From Nitrososphaeria archaeon (GTDB lineage: Archaea > Thermoproteota > Nitrososphaeria > JACIWG01): a stretch of DNA of 64,000 bases. Position 1 is the stretch's first letter. Every line of letters begins with the position of its first letter. Below are positions 5,465 through 62,786 of the stretch, piece after piece. The DNA lies in contig JBMFNX010000004.1 of the NCBI GenBank assembly GCA_049969935.1, forward strand, positions 2,366 to 66,365. Reading direction: 5' to 3'. The translations under genes were made by a program, and so were the position numbers. The notes under the pieces are model-generated. The model had not been told where the DNA came from and searched no databases. It saw nothing but the letters and a program-made list of their open reading frames with translations.

Positions 5465-5775
5465 CACTCTCCACGGCTGAAGCCGGGAGATTCTTGCACA
5501 CAGCCACTTCAACGCTTAGGGGCACATTCGTTTCAGCGTTCGCTCCCTCATTGTTCAGCGGCTGCCTGCAATGGGTGTGCCACCGCCCCGTTAACGGCTT
5601 CCGCAGGACTCAGGCCCTGAGCAAGCCCTATATTTTGCTGGAGCCTCGCATCCAATTCAGTCTGGAGCCTTATTCCAGCCTTTGGACATCCGGACCACAT
5701 TCGGGACAACTCGCCCAAAACTTTATCGTTAAACGCATACTTAAACACTTCGACAATTCATCCCAGAGCTAAAGC
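5461..5775 (-). ncRNA. GC-rich structured ncRNA, probably RNase P RNA (SRP RNA less likely); ends approximate
   Basis: About 300-nt GC-rich island in an AT-rich genome with meaningless ORFs on both strands. Minus strand has GUGGUCCGG (P4 5' strand with bulged U) and AAGAAUCUCCCGGCUUCA near the 3' end (CR-V-like, P4 3' strand). Multiple hairpins. Confidence 0.4.
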
Positions 5776-15089: not shown

Positions 15090-16109
15090 ATGACCTGCAC
15101 AGTTATAGTAGGAGGATTTTTTGGAGACGAGGGAAAGGGTAAGATAATGTCATACCTTTCCCTAAAGGACAATCCGAAGATAGCGGTGAGAGGGGGAGTA
15201 GGCCCGAACGCTGGACATACAGTAGTGTTTGAGGGAAAAGAGTTTAAGCTGAGAATGCTTCCAAGCGCCATAATAAATAAGAGTACACAGCTTATGATTG
15301 GACCGGGTGTACTTGTAGACCCGAACGTTCTATTAAGGGAGATTGAAACCTTCAGCGCCCACGATAGGGTTAAGGTTGACAGACAATGTGGAGTTATAGA
15401 AGAAAAACATATTGAAATGGATAGAGCGGACGCTTATTTAAAGGGCAAGATAGGTACTACTGGAACAGGATGCGGTCCAGCAAATGTTGACAGAGTAAAA
15501 AGAGTTGGCAAAGTTTGCAGGGACATTGAGTCGCTTTCGAAGTATGTTGACGATGTACCATTTTTGGTTAACGAGGCAATCGCTAGGGGGGAGACGGTGC
15601 ATGTTGAGGGAACACAGGGAACATTCATTTCACTATTTCATGGAACATATCCGTTTGTTACTTCTAAGGATGTGACTGCTTCAGCAATATGCTCGGATGT
15701 GGGAATAGGGCCAAAGGTTGTGGACGATGTCATCGTAGTATTCAAGGCTTACGTTACAAGGGTTGGGGGAGGAGACTTGCCTGGAGAACTGCCTCCCGAA
15801 GAGGCTGAAAAAAGAGGGTGGCTTGAGAAGGCTACTGTCACTGGCAGAGTTAGGAGGAGTGCGCCATTCAACTTTGATTTGGCGAAGAGGGCTGTAATGT
15901 TAAATTCTGCAACACAGATTGCTATAACAAAATTTGATGTACTCTTCCCCCAGGCAAAAAATTTGCGTGAATTTTCTAGGCTACCTAGTGAGGCTAAAGA
16001 GATGATTGACAGAATAGAGGATGCTACAGGAGTTCCTGTAACCATAATAAGTACGGGAGCTGAGGCTGAGGCGACAATAGATAGGAGAAAGGAGCTAGGT
16101 TTTCTTTAA
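15090..16109 (+). CDS. purA: Adenylosuccinate synthetase (short archaeal form)
   Basis: GGFFGDEGKGK P-loop-like motif, GPNAGHTV, GTTGTGCGP; 339 aa. Confidence 0.85.
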   Translation: MTCTVIVGGFFGDEGKGKIMSYLSLKDNPKIAVRGGVGPNAGHTVVFEGKEFKLRMLPSAIINKSTQLMIGPGVLVDPNVLLREIETFSAHDRVKVDRQCGVIEEKHIEMDRADAYLKGKIGTTGTGCGPANVDRVKRVGKVCRDIESLSKYVDDVPFLVNEAIARGETVHVEGTQGTFISLFHGTYPFVTSKDVTASAICSDVGIGPKVVDDVIVVFKAYVTRVGGGDLPGELPPEEAEKRGWLEKATVTGRVRRSAPFNFDLAKRAVMLNSATQIAITKFDVLFPQAKNLREFSRLPSEAKEMIDRIEDATGVPVTIISTGAEAEATIDRRKELGFL

Positions 16110-17311
16110 ACTGCTTCCCACATTTTATGGTATAAACCGAACTCTTTGAAGGCCTCGCATGCAGCTCTAATGTTTTCTAATGGAACCTTTAAAGCTATAG
16201 TATCGCATGGGTCAATCCATCCAGCAATAAGGCCTCCGTTAAACCTTCCTAGGCAGTCGACAATCTTTTTGGCTTCAAACCTAATATTTTCATTTGAACT
16301 GTATATTGTTGTTTGATTATCAACACATGTTAGAAAACATATTTTTCCACCAAAATTTTCTCCCAAAAAAGGTAAAGTGAATAGTGATGTTGGTTGAGGA
16401 ATGTTAATCACATCCAAACCTACATCAATAAAATCTTCAATAATAGGGTGAATTTTTTCATCAGAATGTAATATTGCATGCATACCATACTTTGTCAAAA
16501 AGAACTTTGTATCTTGGCTTAAAAAATTGTCTAAATACGTTTGGGGAAACAAAGAGGCCTGCTGTGAAACGTTCTGTCCGAGCATTAACTTCCGTAACGC
16601 CTTCATCCTTCCCTCCTCTTTTCATGGGAGGGCTTTCGCCGTGAACGGTTGAAGACGGCACATCCCTCTAGTGCTCTAACCCCACATATCGCCCACAAGA
16701 GGGCATCGGGCTTTCTTCCCCCTATCCAGAGATCCCATGGAATTAATAAACTTAACGCGGGCTAGAAGCAGTTTCACACCCCAGTCATCAGTAAAAAATA
16801 TACCTTCAACATCAAGTTCACCCCATTGCTTGACAAGGTTCTCTTGCACTTCAAGAACATTGTCAGCCAAGACAGACACCTTTTCAGGATATTTGTAGAG
16901 GTCTAGTAGAAGATTTTTAAAGCCTCTCAAAAAATGCATCCTCTCAAAGAGTGTGAAGGGTACACTTCCAACCAAATACTTGTCCTTAAAAACTTGATCG
17001 CCATTAGAAGTTTTTAAAACAATTTTAAGCTTAGGAAACTCGTAGACGTCTAAATTTCTCCAATCTTTCAGAGGGTGACCAGTAACCATCTCCATTGTCC
17101 TCCATTCATTAACTGAAGGAATGGACCAATAGCAACCCCATTCATCTAAGCCTGAAATTCCATGATATGGATCCCATGATCTAGCATATTTGCCGACAAA
17201 ATTTGCTTGGACCTCAAGCACATCACTTTCATTTAGCTCAGTAAACCATAGTGGAACACGTTCTGGACCATTAAATTTTATGGTATCGATAACAATATTT
17301 CGACCGCCCAT
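16106..17311 (-). pseudogene. Uroporphyrinogen-decarboxylase-like (URO-D/MtaA family) gene interrupted by in-frame TAG (16676-16678) and TGA (16622-16624)
   Basis: N-part (16676-17311) aligns to URO-D through IFFTDDWG; C-part (16106-16606) aligns to the URO-D C-terminal third. Both are in the same frame, separated by two stops inside a GC-rich hairpin-rich roughly 110-nt segment. Confidence 0.5.
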
Positions 17312-61337: not shown

Positions 61338-62786
61338 CTACTCCCCTGGCAAGATGATGTCGTGAGGCTTAAGCTCCTCCATTCCAGAAAACGTTACAAG
61401 ACCGAACCTAGCCTTATTCCAGAGGTCTCTAATATTTCTTGCACCAGCATAGCCTAATGAAGCCTTCAAACCTAGTGAGAATTCTTCGATCACAATTTGG
61501 GCGTCACCACGATATGGAACATATCCTTCAACACCCTCGGCAATACCTTTAGCCACTGTAGCATAGCGGTCAACTACAAAACGCTTTTGTCTCGCGGAAA
61601 GGCTGCCCATACCACGCAAAGGCTTATAGTACTTTCCTCCAATCTTGATAAGCTCCCCTGGTGATTCACTGCAGCCAGCGAAGACCATGCCCATCATAAC
61701 AGTTGAGGCGCCAGCGGCTAGAGCGAGCATCGCATCACCAGGACTTCTTACACCACCATCAGCTATAATTGGTATGCTTAAGTTAAGTTCTTCGAGTGCG
61801 TCAGCAACCTCTGATACAGCAAAAAGTGTTGGAGCAGCGGCTTTGGTAACCAGTGATGTTATACATGTGGAGCCTGAACCTATTCCAACCCTAACAGCTT
61901 CAAACCTTTCAACAGTTTCAACTGAATCCTTTAATGCTTCACCAGTACCTATATTTCCAATAACAAACTCGGCTGAAACCTCCTTAACAAGCTTTCTAGC
62001 AGATTTTAGGACATTTGAATTGTGAAAGTGTGCAACATCACATACGAGTGCATCAACATACCTGTCTAAAGCCTTAGCTCTTTCTAAATCGAATGGGGAA
62101 ATTGCAGCAGCAACCCTCAACCTTCCCTCAGAATCTCTTGTAGCATGAACATACTTTTCTCTAGAATAGATGTCTTTTATTGTTATAAGCCCAAGAAGCC
62201 TACCACCTTCATCTACAACAGGAAGCTTTTCAATCCTATGGTCATGCATTATCTTCTTCGCTTCCTCGACAGTCACATTCGGTGGAGCGGTCACAACCTT
62301 TTTCGTCATAACATCTCTGACAACACAATTTTGGTCAGCGAAGGCAACATCCCTTTTAGTAAGTATTCCAACAAGCCTTCCTCCTTCAACAACCGGAAGA
62401 CCTGAAATATTATATTTTTTCATAACAGAAATTGCTTCACCAACGGTTGAGCCAGGCTCGATAGTGTAAACGTCTTTGATTATAAAGGATTCAGCCCTCT
62501 TAACCCTCTTAACCTCCTCAACCTGCTCTTCTACGGTCATGTTACGGTGTATGACTCCGATGCCTCCGAGGCGGGCGATGGCTATAGCCATGTCACTGCC
62601 AGTAACCGTGTCCATTGGACTAGAAACAAAGGGCAGGGATACAGGAATGTTCTTTGTAAAATATGAGCTCAAATCTATTTCTGAAGGTTCAACCTCAGAC
62701 CTTCTAGGCAATATTATAAAATCCTTGAATGTGAAGACGTTTGTTGCCTCAACCAATTTTTTATAAAACTTATTTGGCAAGGACAC
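61338..62786 (-). CDS. guaB: Inosine-5'-monophosphate dehydrogenase (with CBS pair)
   Basis: CBS pair in N-terminal third; catalytic loop VRVGIGSGSTCIT; GGVRSPGD; 482 aa. Confidence 0.9.
   Translation of the reverse strand: MSLPNKFYKKLVEATNVFTFKDFIILPRRSEVEPSEIDLSSYFTKNIPVSLPFVSSPMDTVTGSDMAIAIARLGGIGVIHRNMTVEEQVEEVKRVKRAESFIIKDVYTIEPGSTVGEAISVMKKYNISGLPVVEGGRLVGILTKRDVAFADQNCVVRDVMTKKVVTAPPNVTVEEAKKIMHDHRIEKLPVVDEGGRLLGLITIKDIYSREKYVHATRDSEGRLRVAAAISPFDLERAKALDRYVDALVCDVAHFHNSNVLKSARKLVKEVSAEFVIGNIGTGEALKDSVETVERFEAVRVGIGSGSTCITSLVTKAAAPTLFAVSEVADALEELNLSIPIIADGGVRSPGDAMLALAAGASTVMMGMVFAGCSESPGELIKIGGKYYKPLRGMGSLSARQKRFVVDRYATVAKGIAEGVEGYVPYRGDAQIVIEEFSLGLKASLGYAGARNIRDLWNKARFGLVTFSGMEELKPHDIILPGE

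Follow-up and report, generated by a model that had tools for sequence, protein, structure and literature searches.

Within the 64-kb window analysed here, meaning the whole stretch of 64,000 nucleotides of DNA from a hot-spring archaeon, a gene of the uroporphyrinogen decarboxylase (URO-D) family on the minus strand (17311..16106) was very probably inactivated, recently, by a 210-bp non-autonomous miniature derivative of the IS607 family of insertion sequences (IS) that carries the scaffold of a TnpB ωRNA. The insertion itself and its boundaries were observed directly, as were its relationships to the family, the covariation of the RNA and the pseudogene state of the host gene.

Lesions in the URO-D-family gene

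Two open reading frames (ORFs) on the minus strand, 16676..17311 (211 aa) and 16106..16606 (166 aa), lie in one frame, as the sequence-only reading had stated. Both halves gave weak, sub-threshold matches to URO-D (PF01208), each below the Pfam cut-off alone. A reconstructed protein was obtained by taking out the insert and following the frame by eye. Its best match was a 334-aa ortholog (P0001) with 85–86% identity over the full length, and further relatives at 73%, 71% and lower identity were all uninterrupted and all contained PF01208. The gene order BadF-like ATPase, URO-D, adenylosuccinate synthase (PurA), AIRS-like protein and UPP synthase was common to the window and to the loci of the two best matches, with SIS-domain genes and an ABC permease upstream of the shared block. 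Comparison with the ortholog locus L001 showed collinearity at ~88% DNA identity, and the blastn match was broken only between 16567 and 16779, which are the blastn boundaries of the insert.

DNA alignment to the orthologs demonstrated three lesions in the URO-D gene, namely a 210-nt insertion, a 1-nt deletion and an 8-nt deletion. The two halves appear to be in frame because the net length change (210 - 1 - 8 = 201) is divisible by three. Taking out the insert and padding both deletions restores a length of exactly 1005 nt, equal to that of the L001 ortholog. The parts of the gene are as follows.

16106..17311, minus strand: URO-D-family (PF01208) pseudogene, whole (ORFs, read-through translation and ortholog comparison)
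16779..17311, minus strand: 5' part, codons 1–178, ending ...FFTDDWG (gapless alignment to orthologs up to GACTGGGG)
16106..16568, minus strand: 3' part of the pseudogene (ortholog alignment)
16493–16558, minus strand: shifted segment within the 3' part, true frame of GLFVSPNVFRQFFKPRYKVLFD (frame differs from both neighbours)
16558..16560, minus strand: 1-nt deletion, CAGCAG-GCC against CAGCAAGGCC in the orthologs (DNA alignment, frame shift)
16492..16493, minus strand: 8-nt deletion, GACA joined to AAGTATGG against GATACAGCACACAAATATGG, with loss of the T-A-H codons (DNA alignment)

The 22 conserved codons between the two deletions, including nine invariant residues (P190 to L204), are out of frame, and the conserved core of a functional PF01208 gene (DDWG...LFxxP..R..FKPRY...HSDG) is not covered by one open frame here. 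The SLFPQTY string, used as a landmark by the sequence-only reading, comes from reading the conserved GLFVSPNVF segment out of frame. Since the 1-nt and 8-nt deletions persist after removal of the insert, the gene is a pseudogene whatever the fate of the insert in RNA. Judged from its sequence, this member of a sugar-related gene cluster is a decaying pseudogene, one of the options offered by the sequence-only reading, which had missed two of the three lesions that set it apart from the intact syntenic orthologs. All three lesions fall within ~290 nt (16492–16778) of the 1.2-kb region and the remaining gene is intact; the 1-nt deletion lies ~10 nt (9–11) and the 8-nt deletion ~76 nt from the right end of the insert.

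The reconstructed URO-D gene gave a ratio of nonsynonymous to synonymous substitution rates (dN/dS) of 0.137 against the ortholog at a dS of ~0.5. Neighbouring genes gave 0.11–0.135, and PurA gave 0.023. No relaxed selection on the pseudogene was detected by this dN/dS test, in which its value resembled that of the neighbours; the divergence thus mostly accrued under selection, and the inactivation of the gene is recent.

The interruption might also have arisen as an artefact of assembly or sequencing, for example through a chimeric join at a repeat or through homopolymer errors. A metagenome-assembled genome (MAG) at NCBI (GCA_023256095.1, JAGDWQ010000101.1; L110) is identical to the window up to its position 2128, corresponding to window position 16621 inside the element, and beyond that point switches to internal sequence of an unrelated creatininase-like gene. 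Identity also extends along a Logan contig (L112) to its end inside the element at 16635, and the 1-nt deletion falls within a short run of G. A separate assembly, from JGI (L111), is however 100% identical over 2547 nt and reproduces the insert and both deletions exactly, which argues against sequencing error as the cause. In addition, several contigs, among them three blocks of 50–200 kb, carry records of the truncated 211-aa product, the insert is flanked on both sides by sequence collinear with the orthologous locus, and the neighbouring genes are intact and match their orthologs in length. An artefact is therefore considered extremely improbable. The departure of L110 is most simply a mis-join at the repeat, and the element repeat evidently breaks or mis-joins assemblies.

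The 210-bp insert and its family

The insert comprises 210 nt between GACTGGGG and TTCACAG, with an alignment ambiguity of one base. Five orthologous loci (L001–L005) read GACTGGGG followed directly by CTCCCAG and represent the empty site, and the filled site in the window has no duplicated flank. Alignment with these uninterrupted 334-aa orthologs thus delimits an insert (16778..16569) of nearly twice the ~110 nt proposed earlier. The GC-rich stretch amid AT-rich flanks described from the sequence was recovered as an island of 55–59% GC at ~16597–16741 in a window of 38% GC. Both in-frame stops come from the insert (TAG, 16678–16676; TGA, 16624–16622); their positions had been given exactly, and they lie inside the insert instead of flanking it. 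The parts of the insert and its surroundings are listed below.

16569..16778, minus strand: 210-bp protein-less miniature IS607-family element, left-to-right orientation as the host gene (absent from orthologous loci L001–L005; homologs elsewhere)
16779..16783, minus strand: TGGGG target / transposon-adjacent motif (TAM) (Trp-Gly codons of the conserved DDWG motif)
16739..16778, minus strand: left end, TGTGAAACTGCTTCTAGCCCGCGTTAAGTTTATTAATTCC (matches the left ends of L043, L097, L033, L036, L037 and L040)
16680..16738, minus strand: middle segment, GCCCGATGCC...GGGCGATATGTGGGG (common to mini copies only)
16676..16678, minus strand: TAG, the first of the two in-frame stops, contributed by the element (ORF translation)
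16569..16679, minus strand: right end with putative ωRNA scaffold (covariance model R1, 103 bits, E = 1e-23, full length)
16608..16673, minus strand: tnpB remnant, last ~20 codons (..VPSSTVHGESPPMKRGGK), out of frame with the host gene (tblastn)
16549..16568, minus strand: predicted guide segment in the flank directly 3' of the right end (similarity of copies ends at ...GAACGG)

A 20-mer from the insert core matched 24 metagenome contigs, and the 3' 65–105 nt of the insert, in gene orientation, showed 88–96% blastn identity to sequence at many unrelated loci. In all family copies the similarity ends at ...CAGAACGG and is followed by unrelated flanks. The core in many copies is the end of an ORF that terminates in ...SSLCPKCRGRLSPSGYRLMKCPRCGLEEDRDIVAVKNLLQRIQIDVPASTVHGESPPMKGGGKR and a stop codon and contains PF07282, the TNB zinc-ribbon domain of TnpB/Cas12f. 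The same domain is present in the C-terminal TnpB fragments of L009 and L023, which matched the tnpB remnant of the window by tblastn at 82–89% identity (E = 1e-7). A protein-guided scan of representative genomes for the TnpB tail identified further relatives, of which the best 80 of 112 confirmed were kept; these belong to MAGs labelled Bathyarchaeia, Nitrososphaeria, Methanomethylicia, Methanodesulfokora, Thermococci, Archaeoglobi and others, and the labels of the family also include Korarchaeia-related MAGs. Exact scans with a 41-mer found no match in GTDB representative genomes, and exact scans of viral contigs likewise gave none.

The nature of the transposase was indicated by two loci, L043 and L097, in which a 206-aa protein with an N-terminal helix-turn-helix domain (HTH_17/MerR) and a resolvase domain (PF00239) is encoded directly upstream of a PF07282-containing tnpB. 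In this protein the helix-turn-helix precedes the resolvase catalytic domain, an inverted order of domains that typifies IS607 TnpA. The tnpA-tnpB units of both loci are bounded by left- and right-end sequences like those of the window element. At the left junctions, TGGGG is followed by TTTTGAAACTGCTTCCACTTAGCGTAAGTTTATAAAC in L043 and by TTACGAAGCAGTTTCTCCCTAGCGTAAGTTTATTAAC in L097, both homologous to the window, where TGGGG is followed by TGTGAAACTGCTTCTAGCCCGCGTTAAGTTTATTAAT, and the pattern ..GAAACTG(C/T)TTC..AGCGTAAGTTTATTAA is common to the left ends of L043, L097, L033, L036, L037 and L040. Resolvase-type tnpA remnants were found in L019, L032, L034 and L036. In L019 (1472–2091, minus strand), a resolvase-type tnpA with a truncated N-terminus is fused in frame to the last ~50 tnpB codons, and this decayed copy appears to be an intermediate from the full element towards the mini.

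Copies without any protein, 188–248 bp in length and with a left end, middle and right end like those of the window element, were found at the unrelated loci L006, L007 (two copies), L014/L022 and L017. The two copies on the 7.9-kb contig L007 (Ga0080004_1166876) lie in minus-strand orientation at 623–841 and from 7794, the second being cut by the contig end; the contig derives from the metagenome that yielded Ca. Methanodesulfokora washburnensis. Their presence on one contig indicates that minis are multi-copy within one genome or community. Additional copies of the insert, which the sequence-only reading had proposed to look for, were thus abundant at unrelated loci in other archaeal genomes and metagenomes and absent from the rest of the 64-kb window. 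Solo right-end/ωRNA segments of ~100 nt, starting from CCAGAT and lacking a left end or upstream tnpB remnant, were observed in L011 (1152–1251) and L026 (3591–3692); they represent either additional products of deletion or a class of their own, made up of ωRNA alone. The middle segment shared by the minis has exact matches of 12–15 nt only to the CPxCG region of tnpB, and is possibly, as a tentative assignment, a rearranged remnant of the zinc-ribbon coding region.

GGGG abuts the element in 17/17 distinct left-end junctions, mostly with a T before it, and the right end terminates in GG in 30/31 aligned copies. Short subterminal motifs in direct repeat serve IS607 elements as TnpA binding sites, and a candidate here is AAGTT(T)A. 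It occurs once per end with the same orientation (GCGTTAAGTTTATTAA on the left, GGAAGTTAATGC on the right), and hardly varies in either alignment. Comparison of the family ends revealed no terminal inverted repeats beyond the AAGTT motif region. IS607 inserts at GG, preferably (G)GG, without duplication; its termini are GG, and it lacks terminal inverted repeats (PMC6188088). In the C. botulinum IStron, the IS607 TnpA target and the identical TnpB TAM are 5'-TGGG with strict GG, and the ωRNA scaffold ends in ...UCGG (bioRxiv 10.1101/2023.11.20.567912). Because the invariant Trp-Gly of DDWG necessarily encodes TGGGG, the target of this transposon family, the conserved protein motif constitutes a built-in insertion site. 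Taken together, the family consists of full IS607-type elements, tnpB-only elements and protein-less minis, and is previously uncatalogued. The earlier suggestion of an inserted structured RNA or of an element resembling a miniature inverted-repeat transposable element (MITE) holds insofar as the insert is a mobile element with an RNA module; it fails for the target duplication and the terminal inverted repeat, neither of which is found in the family.

An alternative placement of the insert is as a palindrome-associated transposable element (PATE), a miniature of IS200/IS605 moved as single-stranded DNA by a Y1 (HUH) TnpA. Most related loci contain tnpB alone with no adjacent transposase, IS200/IS605 elements likewise insert 3' of a short motif without target duplication, and PATEs encoding ωRNAs have been described for IS200/IS605 (PMC10055086). 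Within the same ends, however, the transposase is always a helix-turn-helix plus resolvase serine recombinase (L043, L097 and L033, with the remnants in L019, L032, L034 and L036), and a Y1 transposase was seen in no locus. The G-rich TGGGG target and the right end in GG are also IS607-like and not TA-rich as in IS605. An initial assignment to the IS200/IS605 PATEs was dropped when the same ends proved to enclose resolvase-type TnpA genes, and such an origin is now regarded as improbable.

A further possibility is that the insert is spliced out or bypassed, as a bulge-helix-bulge (BHB) intron, by self-splicing or by programmed recoding, and that the gene is still functional. The shared frame of the two halves is compatible with such a site, an 8-bp inverted repeat (UGUGAAAC/GUUUCACA) joins the junctions, their sequence allows a 4-bp GUGA/UCAC helix with 3-nt bulges, and IS607 and IS605 IStrons splice from mRNAs in Clostridia (bioRxiv 10.1101/2023.11.20.567912). 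The inverted repeat was traced to the changed last base of the window copy, which creates TGTGAAAC/GTTTCACA with a 3' arm that extends into host sequence. Since it includes flank, the repeat is specific to the window copy and not a family feature; other copies end in GG and continue into unrelated flanks. The BHB intron was rejected by an explicit motif scan, in which the junctions showed the central 4 bp only, with 0 bp in the outer helix and 0 bp in the inner helix, and 57 equal or better chance motifs occurred in the same 450 nt. No group I/II intron, ribozyme or other relevant Rfam family was found even at E <= 10. Exact removal of the insert also leaves the 22 conserved codons out of frame through the 1-nt and 8-nt deletions. 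The recoding or processing site that had been suggested for this locus is accordingly given almost no credence.

Covarying helices at the right end

RNA structure was analysed with RNAalifold and explicit pair counting on an alignment of 31 distinct right ends. Two helices were conserved.

16638..16659, minus strand: putative ωRNA helix 1, GCCG 16659–16656 paired with CGGC 16641–16638 (covariation)
16611..16632, minus strand: putative ωRNA helix 2, CCCUCC 16632–16627 paired with GGAGGG 16616–16611 (95% of cells paired, 31 copies)

Helix 1 occurs as GCCG/CGGC, GGGG/CCCC and GCCC/GGGC in different copies, and both sides are changed in 3/5 pairs. The TGA stop (16624–16622) sits in the loop of helix 2, and the L007/L014 subfamily has a 20-nt insertion in this loop. 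Over the 31 copies, 95.8% of cells were paired, including 20 cells with changes on both sides; 0/500 shuffles reached the observed score or the count of both-side-changed cells, and slid controls were paired at <=67%. Of the hairpins drawn by the sequence-only reading, CCCUCC/GGAGGG and GCCG/CGGC are therefore conserved in the family, while the outer GAGGG/CCCUC pairing is specific to this copy. The mutual exclusivity claimed for the hairpins is apparent only through that non-conserved extension.

Covariance model R1, derived from this alignment, scored the window copy at 103 bits as its sole match in the window. It gave 66 matches in 98 related loci, with unrelated flanks, and none in the empty orthologous loci; wherever tnpB was present, the match was always at its 3' end. 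The TnpB reading frame runs through both helices, and the compensatory changes in helix 1 (columns 25–28 and 44–47; window 16659–16638) alter the TnpB C-terminus. Coordinated variants of the tail (..VPAS..HGES.., ..VGAS..HPES.. and ..VPSS..QGES..) were observed, so that the RNA structure constrains the protein tail. In position and behaviour, the conserved hairpins of the insert are those expected of a TnpB ωRNA scaffold.

Searches of Rfam at the gathering score returned nothing in the window or in 20 related loci except unrelated tRNAs. For the insert, the Rfam search recommended by the sequence-only reading yielded no relevant family, with one spurious match at E <= 10 and no intron, ribozyme or RAGATH family. 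ARAGORN detected no tRNA or tmRNA. The folding energy of the whole insert was not unusual compared with shuffled sequence (z = -0.7 for the gene strand, -2.0 for the opposite one); with a minimum-free-energy fold no better than shuffled, thermodynamics alone would not have revealed the element.

The good preservation of the structured core (103 bits, with helices 1 and 2 intact), and the middle segment shared by the minis and missing from full elements, could be read as signs that the mini has been taken over by the host and kept as a stand-alone small RNA gene or regulator. The unrelated loci and flanks of the copies are instead a signature of mobility, and the orthologous site is empty in relatives. 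The window copy, moreover, lies in a dead gene, its 3' hairpin is weakened and its last base is altered. Host take-over is for these reasons considered very improbable.

Proposed origin and relation to known systems

For the window element, the mobilising enzyme and any making or use of an ωRNA are inferred, and the following course of events is proposed. A serine-recombinase TnpA from elsewhere would act in trans on the element, and the GG at the joined element ends would recombine with a GG of the TGGGG in the DDWG codons. The outcome would be a simple insertion without target duplication that brings TAG and TGA in frame. The element has neither tnpA nor tnpB, and the last ~20 codons of tnpB and the right end together encode the putative TnpB ωRNA scaffold. 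The guide lies directly 3' of the right end in TnpB systems (bioRxiv 10.1101/2023.11.20.567912; PMC10055086). Read-through from the host gene could accordingly produce an ωRNA with the predicted guide 16568–16549, and a TnpB from elsewhere could use this RNA in trans to re-cut empty TGGGG sites (homing).

Several points weigh against insertion of an IS607-derived mini with an ωRNA scaffold as the full account. The window copy ends in ...AACGT and not in ...AACGG as do 30/31 copies, which requires a G>T change or a non-canonical exchange, and its 3' hairpin is weakened (GGCG/UGCU against GAGCG/CGCUC in close relatives). Neither tnpA nor tnpB was found in the 64-kb window by tblastn with TnpB and resolvase fragments, which returned only the 20-codon tail. 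No second copy of the element was detected there by self-comparison or with the full-sensitivity family covariance model, so mobilisation in trans within this genome is a proposal. Many relatives have tnpB without tnpA, and only a subset of copies thus speaks for a serine recombinase. The middle segment can be traced to a source only tentatively, and expression of an ωRNA from the window copy is a prediction.

A stronger version of this account holds that the mini is a working 'guide-only' module, kept by RNA-guided homing with a TnpB acting in trans, and that the deletions are possibly repair scars left by TnpB cuts in or close to the flank that matches its own guide. Under random placement, two independent deletions would both fall <=80 nt from the insert in a 1-kb gene with a chance of <~3%, and this low chance is the reason why the deletions could be such scars. 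A link of both deletions to element activity, for example TnpB cutting and repair, is possible, as is plain later decay. The guide-only module is on balance considered unlikely.

Insertion of an IS607-derived mini, the preferred explanation, was compared with known systems. The family shares with the IS607 family (IS607 of Helicobacter pylori, CboIStron of Clostridium botulinum) the lack of target-site duplication, GG at the end and the target, a (T)GGG target, the tnpA(Ser)-tnpB arrangement in autonomous relatives, and an ωRNA over the tnpB 3' end that ends in ...CGG at the right boundary. The window copy differs from these systems in the loss of both genes, in its length of only 210 bp and in a last base of T instead of G. 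The family as a whole differs in being archaeal and thermophilic, with a four-G target logo and no group I intron. Classical archaeal MITEs, such as SM1–SM4 of Sulfolobus, carry terminal inverted repeats, and DDE transposases generate target-site duplications around them. Like them, the minis are short, multi-copy, non-coding IS derivatives that disrupt genes, whereas the family of the window element has neither terminal inverted repeats nor a target-site duplication.

The PATEs of Haloquadratum walsbyi and Geobacillus stearothermophilus are similarly protein-less minis in which both ends of a TnpB-type IS are preserved. The ωRNA is often retained, and these PATEs rely on a transposase and TnpB in trans (PMC10055086). 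They differ in having parents moved by Y1 HUH enzymes, subterminal hairpins and TA-rich targets, where the present family has serine-recombinase relatives and a TGGGG target. The window RNA resembles known TnpB ωRNAs or right-end element RNAs (reRNAs), such as the ISDra2 ωRNA and the RAGATH-18-derived reRNAs of IS607 TnpBs, in extending from the tnpB 3' end to the right end, in its covarying helices and in the guide expected in the flank. In contrast to these, it has no Rfam match, including RAGATH, at E <= 10 and is a predicted RNA.

Other features of the window were also noted. An intergenic island of ~250 nt with 60–64% GC (5465–5712) lies between a phosphoglycerate-mutase-like ORF and a 517-aa ORF. 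On the minus strand its fold has an energy of -103.9 kcal/mol (z = -3.5), and no Rfam family was matched at the gathering score or at E <= 1; the island is a probable structured RNA, so far uncatalogued, of a thermophile. Two further GC-rich stretches (61634–61767 and 62503–62646; 56–58% GC) had no Rfam match at E <= 1.

With regard to annotation, the 211-aa and 166-aa 'genes' are to be merged as one pseudogene interrupted by a mobile element. In assemblies of MAGs, the family causes contig breaks and one mis-join. A family with a TGGGG target and an ωRNA without an Rfam model, spread in thermophilic archaea, changes no concept; it could be of interest to those mining thermostable TnpB/ωRNA editors with G-rich TAMs.

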